This document shows positions 3,572 to 14,006 of a stretch of DNA of 21,334 nt, piece by piece. The notes beneath the pieces were generated by a model. The model saw only the letters and a list, made by a program, of their open reading frames with translations, ran no database searches and was not told the DNA's origin. The first letter of the stretch is position 1; the number at the start of each line of letters is the position of its first letter. The DNA is from a virus. Lineage: Duplodnaviria > Heunggongvirae > Uroviricota > Caudoviricetes. Both the position numbers and the translations under genes were made by a program. Where the stretch lies: IMG/VR virus record IMGVR_UViG_2534682338_000003, positions 1 to 21,334 of that record; one strand, 5' to 3'.

Positions 3572-3858
3572 TTTCATATTGGCGAGGTAAAGGTAGTTAA
3601 GTAGAATGGCTGCGGGTGCTTGAGGCTATCTGCCTCGGGCATGAACACCAAAGGCAGATAGAGAAAAGCCCCAGTTAACATTACGCGTCCTGCAAGACGC
3701 TTAACATTAATCTGAGGCCAATTTCATGCTAGACACATGTAGGTTAGCCTCTTACGTGCCGAAAGGCAAGGAGAAGCAGGCTATTGTTAACACCAAGCTG
3801 TAATGTCCCCTTTGAACCATTCTAAAATGTCCCCAGACAATTCTCTGGGGGATTTTTC

Positions 3859-7787: not shown

Positions 7788-8066
7788 ATGGCACGCAACG
7801 CAAAATATTACAATTCTGATAATTCGCCCGTTCTTGCCTGCACGCACGGGCGGTATTCTCACGCATTCAAGTCTGAATGGTTCCAGCACCCTCCATGCAC
7901 TGCAGAACAGGCCGAATGGCTGATTCATTCTTACCGCAGGCGCGGGTTCGAGGTTAAGAAAGCTCTCAGTCTCGACTATCGGCACTGGATAATCTCTGTC
8001 AGGCTGCCTTATTCCGAACGCCCACCACGTGCGTCCCGCACTTTCCAGCAACGGATCTGGAGGTAA
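7788..8066 (+). CDS. Hypothetical 92-aa protein, translationally coupled to ydfU
   Basis: ORF-track ORF; GGAG 7 nt upstream of the ATG; its TAA stop (8064-8066) lies between the ydfU SD and the ydfU GTG start. Confidence 0.5.
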   Translation: MARNAKYYNSDNSPVLACTHGRYSHAFKSEWFQHPPCTAEQAEWLIHSYRRRGFEVKKALSLDYRHWIISVRLPYSERPPRASRTFQQRIWR

Positions 8067-8067
8067 C

Positions 8068-9117
8068 GTGCGGGTATTACTTAGACCTGTTCTGGTGCCT
8101 GAGCTTGGGCTGGTGGTCCTTAAGCCGGGCCGTGAATCCATACAGATATTTCATAATCCTCGAGTGCTGGTGGAACCGGAACCAAAAAGCATGCGTAATC
8201 TGCCATCCGGAGTCGTTCCTGCCGTTCGCCAGCCGCTGGCGGAAGACAAAACATTGCTGCCGTTTTTTAGTAACGAACGGGTGATTCGTGCTGCTGGCGG
8301 CGTTGGCGCATTGTCCGACTGGCTATTACGTCATGTTACATCCTGCCAGTGGCCTAATGGCGATTACCATCACACTGAAACAGTCATTCACCGTTATGGT
8401 ACCGGCGCAATGGTGTTGTGCTGGCACTGCGACAACCAACTGCGTGACCAGACATCGGAATCACTGGAGCTGCTTGCTCAACAAAATCTGACAGCATGGG
8501 TGATTGACGTCATCCGTCACGCAATAAGCGGTACGCAGGAGCGGGAATTATCTTTGGCTGAATTATCCTGGTGGGCGGTCTGCAATCAGGTGGTGGATGC
8601 ACTACCTGAGGCTGTATCGCGTCGTTCGCTGGGATTACCAGCGGAAAAAATCTGCTCGGTGTACCGCGAAAGCGACATCGTACCGGGAGAGCAGACCGCC
8701 ACCAGCATATTGAAACAACGCACAAAAAATCTTGCACCGTTGCCTTACGCCCACCAGCAACAAAAATCACCACAGGAAAAGACGGTGGTAAGCATCACCG
8801 TTGATCCAGAGTCTCCGGAATCTTTCATGAAGCTGCCTAAACGTCGCCGCTGGGTTAAGGAGAAATACACACGTTGGGTTAAGACACAGCCGTGTGCTTG
8901 CTGCGGTATGCCAGCCGACGATCCGCATCATCTGATTGGTCACGGGCAGGGCGGAATGGGAACAAAAGCACATGATCTCTTTGTGTTGCCTTTGTGCAGA
9001 AAGCATCACAACGAGCTGCATACGGATACAGTGGCATTTGAAGATAAGTATGGCTCCCAACTGGAGCTGATATTTCGTTTTATCGATCGCGCGCTGGCAA
9101 TTGGCGTACTGGCGTAA
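8068..9117 (+). CDS. ydfU: YdfU, DUF968 protein with a C-terminal HNH-like Cys/His motif (349 aa)
   Basis: Same frame as ORF-track 8029-9117; I prefer GTG 8068 because GGAGG sits at 8059-8063 and the length then matches the 349 aa I recall; motif CACCGMPADDPHHLIGHG...CRKHHNELH. Confidence 0.75.
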   Translation: MRVLLRPVLVPELGLVVLKPGRESIQIFHNPRVLVEPEPKSMRNLPSGVVPAVRQPLAEDKTLLPFFSNERVIRAAGGVGALSDWLLRHVTSCQWPNGDYHHTETVIHRYGTGAMVLCWHCDNQLRDQTSESLELLAQQNLTAWVIDVIRHAISGTQERELSLAELSWWAVCNQVVDALPEAVSRRSLGLPAEKICSVYRESDIVPGEQTATSILKQRTKNLAPLPYAHQQQKSPQEKTVVSITVDPESPESFMKLPKRRRWVKEKYTRWVKTQPCACCGMPADDPHHLIGHGQGGMGTKAHDLFVLPLCRKHHNELHTDTVAFEDKYGSQLELIFRFIDRALAIGVLA

Positions 9118-9130
9118 GTGGAGAACGAGC

Positions 9131-9883
9131 ATGAACCTTGAAGCCTTACCAAAATATTACTCCCCAAAATCTCCAAAATTGAGCGATGACGCTCCAGCGA
9201 CAGGCACCGGTTGTTTAACAATTACGGATGTAATGGCAGCGCAGGGGATGGTGCAGTCGAAAGCACCACTTGGGTTGGCCTTATTTCTGGCAAAAGTTGG
9301 TGTTCAGGACCCTCAGTTTGCGATTGAAGGCCTGCTAAATTACGCGATGGCACTGGATAACCCGACATTGAACAAATTGAGTGAAGAAATCCGGTTACAG
9401 ATTATTCCTTACCTCGTGAGTTTTGCCTTTGCTGATTACTCCAGGTCTGCGGCAAGTAAGGCTCGCTGTGAGCATTGTTCAGGTACGGGATTTTATAATG
9501 TATTGCGCGAAGTGGTGAAACACTACAGACGCGGGGAATCTGTAATCAAGGAAGAATGGGTGAAGGAACTATGTCAGCATTGCCATGGTAAGGGCGAAGC
9601 CAGCACAGCGTGCAGAGGGTGTAAGGGTAAAGGGATTGTTCTGGATGAAAAAAGAACCCGGTTTCATGGCGTACCGGTATATAAGATTTGTGGGCGTTGT
9701 AATGGAAACCGGTTTAGTCGTTTACCGACCACGCTGGCACGACGTCATGTCCAGAAGCTGGTACCAGACCTGACCGATTATCAGTGGTATAAGGGGTATG
9801 CGGACGTCATTGGTAAACTGGTAACAAAGTGCTGGCAGGAAGAAGCATACGCGGAAGCGCAATTGAGGAAGGTGACGAGATAA
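9131..9883 (+). CDS. quuQ: Late-gene antiterminator Q (250 aa)
   Basis: Same frame as ORF-track 9101-9883; start chosen at MNLEALPKYY to match the length I recall; Cys-rich zinc-binding region CEHCSGTG...CQHCHGKGE...CRGCKGKG. Confidence 0.85.
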   Translation: MNLEALPKYYSPKSPKLSDDAPATGTGCLTITDVMAAQGMVQSKAPLGLALFLAKVGVQDPQFAIEGLLNYAMALDNPTLNKLSEEIRLQIIPYLVSFAFADYSRSAASKARCEHCSGTGFYNVLREVVKHYRRGESVIKEEWVKELCQHCHGKGEASTACRGCKGKGIVLDEKRTRFHGVPVYKICGRCNGNRFSRLPTTLARRHVQKLVPDLTDYQWYKGYADVIGKLVTKCWQEEAYAEAQLRKVTR

Positions 9884-9914
9884 ATGATTTTTGCTGAAGA
9901 TGGCGACATGATGT

Positions 9915-9943
9915 TTGCATTTTTCAAAAAATATGGATAAAAT
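9915..9943 (+). promoter_or_regulatory. PR'-like late promoter (TTGCAT-17 nt-TAAAAT) just downstream of Q
   Basis: -35 TTGCAT 9915-9920, 17-nt spacer, -10 TAAAAT 9938-9943; position matches the late promoter/qut region of lambdoid phages. Confidence 0.5.
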
Positions 9944-9989
9944 TTTTTCAACGATGGGCTTTGTATACCCGACGTTAAGAAAAAGTAGA

Positions 9990-10016
9990 AAACCCGCTGA
10001 TGAGCGGGTTTTGTGC
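9990..10016 (+). terminator. tR'-like rho-independent terminator
   Basis: ACCCGCT-GATG-AGCGGGT hairpin followed by TTTGTGCTTT, about 50 nt downstream of the candidate late promoter. Confidence 0.6.
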
Positions 10017-10304
10017 TTTAAATGGGGCAATGGTAATGTTGAATCTCATCCCGGGACTCATGTCTGTTAACTTATTATTTAGCTGGTGACTTGGTTATTT
10101 GCCTGATGTTTAAAATGTTTTCTTCCAGTACAATGTCCCTAAACACAATGAGTCTGCTTATTATATTATTAGCAGAGCTATTACGGCCAAAGTACAGCAT
10201 AAGCTTTTAAAGCCAATCAACCAGTCATCAAGACAGACGGGGTTATTCATAAAAACTCTCCATGTGTGATCCGATGGGGCCTGAAATTAAAGCTTTAATA
10301 TAGC

Positions 10305-10517
10305 TCATGAAAGGTAAACATTGGCAGCTGAAGGGCCACGCAGACCATTTATCCGGCAAAATTCCACGCGTAATCCGGTGGTAATTTCTTCTGCATCGCG
10401 GAGATTGAGCGCTGAGACATGAAGCTGGACATCGATACGACCATCGGATGGGGTGATAAGACCCTTGCCGCTTTTGCCGTCAAAGGTTTTGACAATTCCT
10501 GTCATTTTACGGGACAA
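10305..10517 (-). CDS. cspF: Cold-shock protein family member CspF (70 aa)
   Basis: ORF-track [29 protein letters not shown]...; divergent from cspB. Confidence 0.9.
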
Positions 10518-10817
10518 AAAAATTCCTTAATACTGATAACTTGGCGCACTATACACACGTTCCTGAAGAAAGCTATAGTTTTTTGATGGGGTTGAAGATG
10601 GCTGGATGTCTAAAATAAACATTGCTTCATATGTTCAACTATGCGTTAATGATTGCGTCGGTTTGAAGAACAGACGATATACGAAGTAGTTTACTAAAGC
10701 AGTTCTCATTTCAGGTGTTATTCACTTATTCCTTCTTTGAGTCTCTCCAATTAAGTACGAAGTCGTTTCTGTTATGCAAACCATTTATGCCGAAAGGCTC
10801 AAGTTAAGGAATGTAGA

Positions 10818-11033
10818 ATGTCAAATAAAATGACTGGTTTAGTAAAATGGTTTAACGCTGATAAAGGTTTCGGCTTTATTTCTCCTGTTGATGGTAGTAA
10901 AGATGTGTTTGTGCATTTTTCTGCGATTCAGAATGATAATTATCGAACCTTATTTGAAGGTCAAAAGGTTACCTTCTCTATAGAGAGTGGTGCTAAAGGT
11001 CCTGCAGCAGCAAATGTCATCATTACTGATTAA
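10818..11033 (+). CDS. cspB: Cold-shock protein CspB (71 aa)
   Basis: ORF-track [37 protein letters not shown]...; long 5' leader typical of cold-shock genes. Confidence 0.9.
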
Positions 11034-11314
11034 AATTCATCGCTCGTCTGTATACGATAACGAAGAAGGCTGATGCCTGAGTAGAGATACGGACAGAGTA
11101 GTGAATATTGGATCTCTTTAATAAAAAGTAAGGAGGTCCAATACATGAAACAATGGCTAGCATATTTGGCAAAATCTTAATCAGGAAAAGTATGCTAACC
11201 ATTGTGGTGAAGTGCAGGTTTGCTGCATGAATAGTTTTACAGCAGAAGCTAACTGCTGGCATGGCAAAACAAAGTGCGTAAGTGGATGACTCCCACAAAA
11301 AGCACCACAATCTC

Positions 11315-11338
11315 AAACCCGCTCAGGCGGGTTTTTTA
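11315..11338 (+). terminator. Rho-independent terminator
   Basis: AAACCCGC-TCAG-GCGGGTTT followed by TTTTTT. Confidence 0.6.
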
Positions 11339-11396
11339 TTATCTGCTTTAAATATATTATTAAAATATAAAAAATACTTGTTACTAATAAAATCAA

Positions 11397-11567
11397 TCAG
11401 GCTACAGCTTTAAGATTTGTCTGGAATACTTTGTTGCAATGAGGGCAGATCAAAAGGGCACCTTTTTGTACTCTTGAAAAACTGTGTTCTGACTCTTGGG
11501 TGCAGTTTGGGCAGGAACATTTAACGAGATAATTACGGCGTGATTTTGAGTTTTTACGTTCTGACAT
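11397..11567 (-). CDS. YdfK/YnaE-like zinc-ribbon small protein (56 aa from the internal ATG)
   Basis: Same frame as ORF-track 11397-11618; start chosen at MSERKNSKSRRNYLVKCSCPNC...CPHCNK because AGGAAA lies 5 nt upstream, while the longer start has no SD. Confidence 0.55.
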   Translation of the reverse strand: MSERKNSKSRRNYLVKCSCPNCTQESEHSFSRVQKGALLICPHCNKVFQTNLKAVA

Positions 11568-11786
11568 AGGCTTTTCCTGTATAAATGGCCGTATACAGTA
11601 CACTAAATATGAAAACATTTCTCGTATTATTATTTTATATATGACTTTCTTTCAAAATAATTACCCACATTTTTAATGTGTATGTTTTTTTAGCGCCGTT
11701 GAGAACAACGTGTGCTGTCAAAACTACCCCGTAGACTCCGATCTTTTCAAACATATTGCACCATCCGTGTACATCGGGGTGAGGAT

Positions 11787-12002
11787 ATGAAATCAATGGA
11801 TAAGTTAACAACAGGTGTTGCCTATGGCACATCGGCGGGTAATGCTGGTTTCTGGGCATTGCAGTTACTCGATAAAGTAACTCCGTCACAGTGGGCTGCA
11901 ATCGGTGTGCTGGGTAGCCTGGTTTTTGGCCTGCTGACGTATCTGACAAATCTTTATTTCAAGATTAAAGAAGACAGGCGTAAGGCTGCGAGAGGAGAGT
12001 AA
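11787..12002 (+). CDS. essQ: Phage-21-type pinholin (S21-like holin) with dual-start motif MKSMDK (71 aa)
   Basis: Same frame as ORF-track 11712-12002; start at ATG 11787 after GGGGTGAGGA; sequence [26 protein letters not shown]...[13 protein letters not shown]. Confidence 0.85.
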
Positions 12003-12006
12003 TCCA

Positions 12007-12314
12007 ATGACTCAAGACTATGAACTGGTTGTGAAAGGAGCCCGTAATTTTGAGAATAAAGTTACGGTAACTGTAGCCTTACAGGACAAAGAACGCTTTG
12101 ACGGTGAAATTTTTGACCTGGATGTCGCCATGGACCGTGTTGAAGGAGCTGCGCTGGAGTTTTATGAGGCAGCAGCCAGAAGGAGCGTCCGGCAAGTCTT
12201 CCTGGAAGTAGCAGAAAAATTGTCAGAAAAAGTTGAGTCTTATCTGCAGCATCAGTACTCCTTTAAGATTGAAAATCCTGCCAATAAGCACGAGCGTCCT
12301 CATCATAAATATAT

Positions 12315-12318
<4 letters not shown>
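12007..12318 (+). CDS. ydfR: YdfR (103 aa), uncharacterised protein within the lysis cassette
   Basis: ORF-track ORF; stop overlaps the rrrQ start (ATGA). Confidence 0.75.
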
Positions 12319-13342
<1,024 letters not shown>

Positions 13343-13705
13343 GGTAATATTAAATCGGAACATTTACATCGCGGAATGTAAAATTTAAATAAAAAGGACT
13401 CTTCCATGAGCCAAAATTCCTGAAATCTTAAGGGTAAGATAAAAGGTCTTAATCAGAATGACACGTTATTATTAATAAATAAAGCTATTCTTTCATTGCT
13501 GTGTTTTTCTTTACAAAAGTAATCCTTGCTATGGGTGGTTAATCATGCGTTAATGGTGTTCTGGTTTGTTACAAATTTATCTGAAGCAGTCATTGTTATA
13601 ATTTTATTATTTGTACCTCTTGAGATTTCCTTGTTGGTTTTTCTCTCTGATATTTTTTTTCGGACCATTCTGCCCAAGGGCTAATTTCTTCAAAAGGTAA
13701 TAATT

Positions 13706-13918
13706 ATGTCTAACAAAATGACTGGTTTAGTGAAATGGTTTAACCCTGAAAAAGGTTTTGGTTTCATCACGCCGAAAGATGGCAGCAAAGATGTGTTTGT
13801 CCATTTCTCAGCAATTCAGAGCAACGATTTCAAAACATTAACTGAGAATCAGGAAGTTGAATTTGGTATTGAGAACGGACCTAAAGGTCCTGCCGCTGTT
13901 CATGTAGTGGCGCTTTGA
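13706..13918 (+). CDS. cspI: Cold-shock protein CspI (70 aa)
   Basis: ORF-track [37 protein letters not shown]...; long AT-rich 5' leader. Confidence 0.9.
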
Positions 13919-14006
13919 GGTAGACAATATTACAAACCATATTCACTTTAGATGCCCGTGTTGTCATGGTTCCCAGTATAGAACATCATCTTTTGATGTT
14001 TCTGAC

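Follow-up and report, generated by a model that had tools for sequence, protein, structure and literature searches.

The stretch of viral DNA analysed here, 21,334 nt long and called the window below, very probably contains, directly after the Q gene of a Qin-type lambdoid prophage, a cassette for late-gene control that is organised as in lambda. Such a cassette has been defined as gene Q, a promoter, a pause element, a terminator and the downstream genes, in this order (PMC9388147). An earlier note on this DNA had described the motif TTGCAT-17-TAAAAT and a terminator after Q, and both their sequence and their coordinates are as it gave them. Its reading of the two as a pR'/qut/tR' cassette is strongly supported by the family to which the Q protein belongs and by the presence of the lambda pause element at the same position, as well as by the conservation of the cassette together with Q in front of different cargoes and by an RNA 3' end mapped in the terminator tail in Escherichia coli K-12.

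Gene order and identity of the locus

The features on which the analysis relies are the following, in window coordinates.

8029-9117: ydfU, directly before the Q gene in the gene order
9131-9883, plus strand: Q gene ydfT/quuQ (RefSeq name ydfT), 250 aa, lambda-Q family
9915-9920, plus strand: -35 hexamer TTGCAT, read from the sequence
9921-9937, plus strand: 17-nt spacer TTTTCAAAAAATATGGA, expected place of the Q binding element
9938-9943, plus strand: -10 hexamer TAAAAT, read from the sequence and from a consensus scan
9950-9958, plus strand: predicted transcription start (9950) and pause element AACGAT-GGG, equal to +1 to +9 of lambda pR'
9950-9976, plus strand: predicted 5' RNA hairpin AACG.UGGG / CCCG.CGUU, pairing the RNA copy of the pause element (single-sequence fold)
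9989-10019, both strands: intrinsic terminator tR', with its stem at 9989-10012, plus-strand tail TTTTGTGCTTT and minus-strand tail CTACTTTTTC
10161-10250, minus strand: ynfS, hydrophobic small protein of 29 aa (RefSeq annotation)
10305-10517, minus strand: cspF, convergent with pR' (Pfam CSD, E 5.6e-22, and annotation)
10657-11033, plus strand: cspB leader and gene, coding sequence 10818-11033 (Pfam CSD, E 9.8e-32)
11315-11334, both strands: second terminator, 3' of the plus-strand gene cspB and of the minus-strand gene ynfU
11397-11567, minus strand: ynfU, zinc-ribbon protein (Pfam PF23499 YnfU, E 6.4e-31, and RefSeq)
11787-13342, plus strand: lysis cassette (Pfam PF04971, PF07041 and PF00959, and annotation)
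11787-12002, plus strand: essQ, S21-type holin
12007-12318, plus strand: ydfR
12315-12848, plus strand: rrrQ, lysozyme
12845-13342, plus strand: rzpQ, spanin

In a 3-kb comparison, positions 9100-12100 of the window are 100% identical to E. coli IAI1 and to many other strains, and the gene order of the window is that of the cryptic prophage Qin of E. coli K-12. Over 9870-10320 the Qin sequence of K-12 MG1655 does not differ from that of the window, and window position x corresponds there to position 1642502-(x-9870) of NC_000913.3 and the plus strand of the window to the minus strand of K-12. Beyond the lysis genes are found cspI and more small genes, then the terminase, portal and capsid genes; the lysis, terminase, portal and capsid genes all lie downstream of the cassette and on the strand of the late transcript. 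The arrangement including the csp genes occurs in 1608 complete E. coli genomes, and the module formed by Q, pR' and tR' in 2415 of 5426 (about 45%).

The cassette is absent from the annotation of the RefSeq records examined, and literature searches for quuQ, for ydfT with cspF and for Qin csp antitermination gave no description of a Qin late promoter. The Qin cassette is an unannotated member of a textbook kind. An open reading frame at 9915-10070, carried as a hypothetical protein in phage PhiR42_1, was rejected as a gene, since promoter, pause signal and terminator all lie within it.

The candidate late promoter and its pause element

The -35 hexamer starts 32 nt past the stop codon of the Q gene, and the sequence AACGATGGG (9950-9958) begins six bases after the -10 hexamer. 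The consensus scan reported the neighbouring register TTTGCA-18-TAAAAT with a score of 9/12. Taken alone, the promoter match is no better than chance, 10 promoter-like sites being found for 8.7 expected; the site is lifted above chance because AACGATGGG sits six bases after the -10 hexamer. The combined pattern TTG-N20-TAAANT-N5-CAACGATGGG has a single match in the window and none in 100 shuffled sequences.

The automatic alignment with lambda introduced a gap in the -35 region, and an ungapped manual register from -35 to +9 was taken instead. In this register 32 of the 44 bases are identical to lambda pR', including all nine bases from +1 to +9. In lambda, the AACGAT at +1 to +6 of pR' resembles a -10 element and is re-bound by sigma70, which leads to the pause at +16/+17 that is required for Q loading (PMC4005639), while the GGG at +7 to +9 beside it plays the part of a discriminator-like sequence (PMC5001585). 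By analogy with lambda, transcription is predicted to start at 9950 and a pause would be expected near +16/+17, at 9965-9966.

The spacer between the two hexamers is identical to the lambda spacer TATTGAATAAAATTGGG at 11 of 17 positions. In the work of Yarnell and Roberts from 1992, lambda Q is said to bind between -35 and -10, and the Q binding element of Qin would be expected in the 17-nt spacer. The Q binding site has been described as 13 bp long (PMC9388147).

The Q protein

YdfT matches the Pfam family PF03589 (Antiterm, E 3.6e-54) and also PF00684 (DnaJ_CXXCXGXG); it matches the structure of lambda Q (PDB 7ubm) with an E value of 4.6e-36 and is 41% identical to lambda Q. By these matches, the gene upstream of the promoter is a member of the lambda Q family. 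The protein contains an insertion of about 39-47 residues, at about 117-160, which is absent from lambda Q and which forms a second pair of CXXC motifs (a CXXCXGXG zinc finger) in the 'arm'. In lambda Q, the zinc-ribbon arm makes contact with sigma region 4 and with the distal end of the Q binding element (PMC9388147). Since the insertion of YdfT lies in this arm that contacts DNA and sigma, the cognate DNA site may differ in detail, and since the spacer itself differs from lambda at 6 of 17 positions, we can only infer the geometry of Q binding.

The terminator and the RNA 3' end in K-12

The stem of tR' (9989-10012) consists of 10 bp, AAAACCCGCT/AGCGGGTTTT, closed by a loop of 4 nt. The 73-nt RNA from 9950 to 10022 is predicted to fold into the 5' hairpin and the terminator hairpin with -30.4 kcal/mol (z = -6.1), and none of 200 shuffled sequences was as stable. 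The hairpin scan called tR' on the minus strand only, because the plus-strand T run lies partly within the stem; tR' folds well on both strands, indicating that the terminator is bidirectional, and it probably ends the cspF-ynfS transcripts as well. The flank on the 5' side of the hairpin is A-rich in all 59 loci with a convergent csp gene, and this feature is missing in 21 of the 22 informative loci where no csp gene is convergent. The A-rich flank would supply the U tail of the minus-strand transcript and fits a terminator common to pR' and cspF-ynfS, the association being weak evidence because the loci are related to one another. The earlier note had passed over this bidirectionality of tR', and the pause element AACGATGGG too.

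An RNA 3' end has been mapped at this terminator in K-12. In the Term-seq data of Adams et al., recorded under uninduced growth, a 3' end of the class 'orphan' is listed at 1642356(-) of NC_000913.3, with scores of 103591 and 55368 in two datasets, and the flank shown there is the plus strand of the window (PMC7815308, supplementary file 1). This end corresponds to window position 10016 on the plus strand, 8 nt past the G+C core of the stem, that is, at the base predicted for termination in the tail. A start at 9950 and an end at 10016 lead to a predicted RNA of 67 nt (K-12 1642422-1642356, minus strand). Such a strong 3' end is in keeping with constitutive activity of pR', which is the situation in lambda and the Stx phages (PMC7547250).

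In an Rfam search of 9880-10320 nothing reached the gathering score. A match to isrK, at 16.6 bits for a gathering score of 50, was treated as chance, the matches at permissive threshold being driven by the terminator.

Pairing at the 5' end of the RNA

A consensus fold of 14 close variants retains every one of the 8 pairs in the 5' hairpin, and the changes are one-sided. Among 21 dissimilar pR' regions of the Q-lambda family, 19 contain CGTT at +20 to +27, for a shuffle expectation of 2.6 out of 23 on average and 9 at the maximum in 2000 trials; the two exceptions still pair, through G-U pairs or in a shifted register, and the lambda RNA can form AACGA/UCGUU. True covariation is not visible in this hairpin because its 5' arm is fixed by the pause element, and the support for it is that a complementary arm is retained at variable distance. 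We know of no described function for this 5'-terminal pairing. It may, for example, protect the short RNA as well as the long late mRNA against decay that depends on the 5' end, or alternatively it may act after Q loading. That the 67-nt RNA is a trans-acting sRNA like StxS, or that the 5' hairpin is functional across the Q-lambda family, lambda included, is a proposal that we regard as doubtful; if it were true, a constitutive and unannotated sRNA would be present in about 45% of the complete E. coli genomes, K-12 included.

Conservation and modularity of the cassette

A YdfT-type Q is carried by 35 records of the phage collection. In SfV, mEp460, Ayreon and 15 Stx2c phages, a similarity of about 90% extends from the first base of Q to window position 10012 and then ends, and in most of the 35 records the homology stops at this same position, which is the last base of the hairpin. 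This extent of homology implies that Q, the promoter, the pause element and the terminator form one mosaic module, behind which the cargo varies between SfV, mEp460, Ayreon and the Stx2c phages.

In a survey of viral contigs, 80 loci with a YdfT-type Q were found, 79 of which reach the promoter region. All 79 have kept the promoter, the pause element and a terminator, and in all of them TTGCAT is preceded by C or T; a few loci have single-base variants of the pause element, AATGAT or GACGAT. Among Q relatives of 63-72% identity the -35 hexamer is TTGCAA, and the -10 hexamer varies among relatives to TAAGAT and TAGGAT, lambda having TAAATT. Three different hairpin sequences are found at the position of tR' in relatives, and three stem pairs show compensatory changes.

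More distant relatives were sought in one genome per species, after discarding hits in unrelated taxa that were lambda itself. Relatives of Q with 36-72% identity were found in Enterobacter, Kosakonia, Mangrovibacter, Phytobacter, Atlantibacter, Buttiauxella, Pectobacterium, Edwardsiella, Erwinia, E. albertii and other hosts. Nearly all of the 27 Q relatives from other Enterobacterales (36-93% identity) share the layout of the cassette, with a promoter, (C/T)AACGATGGG or a near variant, and a hairpin with a T run within about 40-80 nt of Q. Two of them have the near variants AATGATAGG (L102) and AACGATGAGG (L110), three (L100, L106 and L108) have no AACGAT-like match and one (L136) has a truncated Q. 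The spacer is conserved within the YdfT subfamily and different between Q subfamilies, a pattern that would be expected of a sequence containing the Q binding site.

Predicted route of late transcription across the csp cargo

The distance from the predicted start at 9950 to the ATG of the holin gene at 11787 is 1837 nt, in agreement with the 1.8 kb estimated earlier between the late promoter and the lysis genes. A transcript that continues beyond tR' would be antisense to ynfS, cspF and ynfU, and would carry the cspB leader and cspB in sense orientation. The path proposed in the earlier note, antisense through cspF and then through cspB before the holin, holds for these two genes and had omitted ynfS, whose protein has been detected by epitope tagging (PMC6001520); the gene that was called 'ydfK-like' is instead ynfU, according to both PF23499 and RefSeq, and lies antisense to the late transcript.

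The cspB leader matches the cspA thermoregulator family (Rfam RF01766, 158.8 bits), and in K-12 the cspB leader and the start of the ORF are subject to Rho-dependent attenuation. Past cspB, the late transcript must also read through the terminator at 11315-11334, beside which the Term-seq data place a 3' end at 1641060(+), corresponding to window position 11312 on the minus strand. Q-dependent read-through across the csp genes would follow from this geometry. The induction of csp genes upon prophage induction and the antisense silencing of cspF, which had been suggested for this locus, we only infer. As Qin is cryptic in K-12, Q-dependent late transcription may never occur in that strain.

The same arrangement exists in phages deposited as complete: 2H10, Tritos and PhiR42_1 have Q, pR'/tR', cspF on the minus strand, cspB on the plus strand, ynfU on the minus strand and the holin gene. 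Behind the Q module, csp cargo is found in 52 loci and other cargo in 27, and each of the 52 loci with csp genes has cspF convergent with pR' and cspB in the same orientation as pR'. That this order is kept in csp-bearing phages argues that late transcription copes with it. In one common variant the end of cspF is only about 40 nt from the hairpin and ynfS is absent.

The cargo between tR' and the lysis genes varies among phages that share the flanking modules, and cspB has its own leader and terminator. In other phages this cargo site is occupied by the stx genes (PMC7547250). In SfV a methyltransferase gene lies between tR' and the holin gene, and in DLP12 nmpC is found on the opposite strand between quuD and essD. 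In both SfV and DLP12 a terminator lies directly upstream of the holin gene, so that antitermination is required there too, which is the expected situation if no polymerase other than the Q-modified one gets to the lysis genes. The arrangement with csp cargo is ordinary in kind, a convergent cargo at this site being already familiar.

Comparison with known systems

The closest parallel is the pR'/qut/6S RNA/tR' cassette of lambda, which occupies the same place after a Q of the same family, with the same 17-nt spacing and an identical AACGATGGG; in both systems an intrinsic terminator is followed by the lysis genes, and both RNAs can form an AACG(A) 5' hairpin. The two differ in the length of the terminated RNA (about 67 nt in Qin, 194 nt in lambda), in the Q protein, which in Qin has 250 aa and, unlike lambda Q, the second CXXCXGXG zinc motif in the arm, and in the terminator, which is bidirectional in Qin, unlike that of lambda. 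The holin gene is about 400 bp away from tR' in lambda; in Qin, about 1.8 kb of csp cargo lies between the two, and the opposite strand carries half of this cargo.

The modules of SfV, mEp460 and the Stx2c phages are about 90% identical to Qin in DNA from the start of Q to the end of the hairpin, and share with it the promoter, the pause element and the position of the hairpin, which the SfV record annotates as a putative rho-independent terminator. Their hairpins have a 5' flank that is not A-rich, and the terminators would be one-directional, unlike that of Qin. The cargo also differs, SfV carrying orf47 and the DNA methyltransferase gene instead of csp genes and the Stx2c-converting phage, whose record is unannotated, having a downstream sequence unrelated to that of Qin.

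StxS (EcOnc15) is made constitutively in lysogens from the pR' of Stx phages and ends at tR' (PMC7547250). StxS and the Qin RNA would both be short, Q-independent by-products of antitermination control, and the 3' end at the predicted base in K-12 fits this picture of constitutive synthesis. No sequence relationship was found between the two RNAs. StxS is cut by RNase E from a 258-nt precursor, binds Hfq and activates rpoS. In DLP12, known here by gene order and length, the succession of quuD, nmpC on the minus strand and essD places an opposite-strand gene between Q and an S21-type holin, like in Qin, with a terminator-like hairpin directly upstream of the holin. Its QuuD (127 aa) is much shorter than YdfT, and its cargo is a porin gene, not cold-shock genes.

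Alternative explanations

The 3' end at 10016 could come from the Q-gene mRNA instead of pR', and in its complete form this explanation states that the only transcripts ended by the hairpin are the plus-strand mRNA of the Q gene and the minus-strand RNA of cspF-ynfS, that the promoter is a decayed relic and that the 3' end belongs to a ydfU-ydfT transcript. The bidirectionality of tR', the A-rich flank found in all 59 loci with a convergent csp gene and the classification of the 3' end as merely 'orphan' would all agree with it. However, the hairpin accompanies Q in phages without a csp gene, and K-12 and deposited phage genomes have an intact promoter and pause element of the same sequence. 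The score of the 3' end (103591) is also above that of the hokD mRNA end (44933), which would be odd for an mRNA whose product should turn on the lysis genes, and separate 3' ends downstream of rem and hokD, at 1644572 and 1645082 (PMC7815308), indicate that upstream transcripts mostly stop before ydfU. We consider this explanation very improbable. A constitutive 67-nt regulatory RNA as the main present role of the locus in lysogens and in the cryptic Qin, with late-gene control secondary or lost, seems unlikely to us. It would account for the RNA 3' end in uninduced K-12, and in the predicted molecule the A-rich linker UAAGAAAAAGUAGAAAA joins the 5' hairpin to a terminator that ends in a U tail; StxS, the lambda 6S RNA and IsrK are precedents, and many such RNAs have been predicted by the authors of the StxS study (PMC7547250). 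The presence of the module in 2415 of 5426 complete E. coli genomes would also agree with such a role. Yet the RNA belongs to no Rfam family at threshold, isrK included (16.6 bits, where 50 are needed), and the linker at +28 to +40 is freely variable among close relatives, which speaks against a conserved seed.

The last alternative concerns the lysis genes, which could have their own sigma70 promoter in the spacer between ynfU and essQ, read-through from 9950 then not being required. Genomic SELEX lists TTTATA-16-AATAAT as a promoter for essQ-rrrQ-ydfP (PMC3946193), and this sequence is found at 11634-11661 of the window with a score of 9/12. It overlaps, however, a higher-scoring minus-strand promoter of ynfU (TTGAAA-18-AATAAT, 10/12, 11655-11626), and ynfU is missing from the SELEX gene map, given there as essQ < cspB, so that the polymerase binding may be that of ynfU (PMC3946193). 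The region upstream of essQ is not conserved with that of DLP12 essD or of the SfV holin beyond about 40 nt, and an independent conserved essQ promoter was rejected on this ground. In addition, the homologous holins of DLP12 and SfV are preceded by a terminator, and a constitutive holin/endolysin promoter would harm the host. The probability that the lysis genes have such a promoter of their own is quite low in our estimation.

Proposed mechanism and significance

For the late-gene control cassette that we favour, the following sequence of events is proposed. RNA polymerase with sigma70 would start at about 9950 from TTGCAT-17-TAAAAT, and sigma region 2 would re-bind AACGAT and GGG within the first nine transcribed bases, causing a pause near +16. 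In the case where Q is missing, the polymerase would resume, terminate in the tail of the 9989-10012 hairpin and free the 67-nt RNA (9950-10016). In the presence of Q (YdfT), the spacer would be bound and the paused polymerase loaded, which would make it resistant to terminators; the modified polymerase would then pass through tR', antisense over ynfS and cspF and in the sense direction over the cspB leader and gene, past 11315-11334 and antisense over ynfU, into essQ-ydfR-rrrQ-rzpQ and beyond. The csp genes would be an autonomous cargo that brings promoters and terminators of its own and occupies the usual site for such insertions, and the hairpin would double as the terminator of the convergent cspF-ynfS unit.

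Our general understanding of such cassettes is unchanged by this locus, which offers for studies of Q a natural short-range variant of the lambda system, with the terminator about 40 nt from the start and an extended zinc arm. The cassette would account for the published 'orphan' 3' end in K-12 and names a start point for the late operon of Qin. It also leads to the prediction that, whenever YdfT is produced, ynfS, cspF and ynfU would be transcribed in antisense, and cspB and the lysis genes in sense orientation.

The 5' end of the late transcript and its antiterminator

In the transcript of the late promoter pR', sequence comparison within the Q-lambda family shows a CGTT at +20 to +27 that is complementary to the first 4-5 transcribed bases (AACG/AACGA), in which the pause element is copied into RNA. 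This complementarity was found in 19 of 21 dissimilar family members, against approximately 2.6 of 23 expected from shuffles, and it predicts a 5'-terminal hairpin conserved across the family, at the following positions:

9950-9976 of the window, 5'-terminal hairpin region
788-810 of the lambda locus (L003), 5'-terminal hairpin region
loci L095-L141, 5'-terminal hairpin region in the relatives compared

The antiterminator itself varies in size. Most of the Q family members found are 250-277 aa long, so the lambda Q (207 aa) is a short outlier of its family. In the YdfT-type Q proteins (gene at 9131-9883 in the window) the zinc-ribbon arm contains an insertion of about 47 residues, at Q residues 117-160 approximately, which supplies a second CXXC motif pair (match to Pfam DnaJ_CXXCXGXG). 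A Q of 207 aa was also present in many assemblies of unrelated organisms, including Oceanobacillus, Bradyrhizobium, Shewanella, Kitasatospora and Segatella, on genome contigs of very low coverage (loci L117-L135 and L147), a number of which measure about 48.4-48.5 kb; these occurrences are almost certainly lambda DNA contaminating the assemblies. In some Q-lambda-family prophages a tRNA-like sequence (GCTCAGTGG... / GCTCAGTCGG...) immediately follows the terminator tR' (loci L111 and L140). The same arrangement, with the tRNA-like sequence directly after the terminator, is known in Stx phages.

Transcription around and beyond tR'

The K-12 Term-seq data contain an additional 3' end at window position 10184 on the plus strand (1642188 on the K-12 minus strand, score 87904 in one dataset). 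It falls at the base of a hairpin that spans 10153-10181, and is antisense to the last ynfS codons. This end implies either that some transcripts pass tR' or that an unrecognised start lies between 10020 and 10150. On the opposite strand, the K-12 bicyclomycin data place a Rho-dependent termination region antisense inside ydfT, at 1643015 (+), i.e., window 9357 (-), which indicates that transcription on the cspF-ynfS strand can cross the bidirectional terminator and enter Q antisense.

Further downstream, a 2014 genomic SELEX study gave TTTATA-16-AATAAT to essQ as a sigma70 "constitutive promoter". Within window 11626-11661 it overlaps a better-scoring minus-strand promoter of ynfU, a gene missing from that study's map of the spacer, and its assignment to essQ may need revisiting.

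Further RNA elements of the window:

3614-3785, plus strand, sok antitoxin RNA beside hokD, adjoining relBE (112.5 bits)
13560-13945, plus strand, second cspA-type thermoregulator, cspI leader and gene (112.8 bits)

With cspI and its thermoregulator, the cold-shock genes of the late operon number at least three.

The strongest local Term-seq 3' end (window 11146-11148; 1641226/1641224 (-), scores 604404 and 1233565) lies 113 nt downstream of the cspB stop codon and coincides with the start codon (ATG) of an 11-codon ORF that carries no annotation (MKQWLAYLAKS; 11146-11181, plus strand) and is preceded by a strong Shine-Dalgarno, AAGGAGG. Across window 10657-10830 (plus strand), the K-12 data show a Rho-dependent 3' end in the cspB leader at 1641634 (window 10738) and a highly significant Rho termination region at the ORF start (1641537). 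In the conditions of that experiment Rho therefore attenuates cspB, an effect that polymerase modified by Q should overcome.
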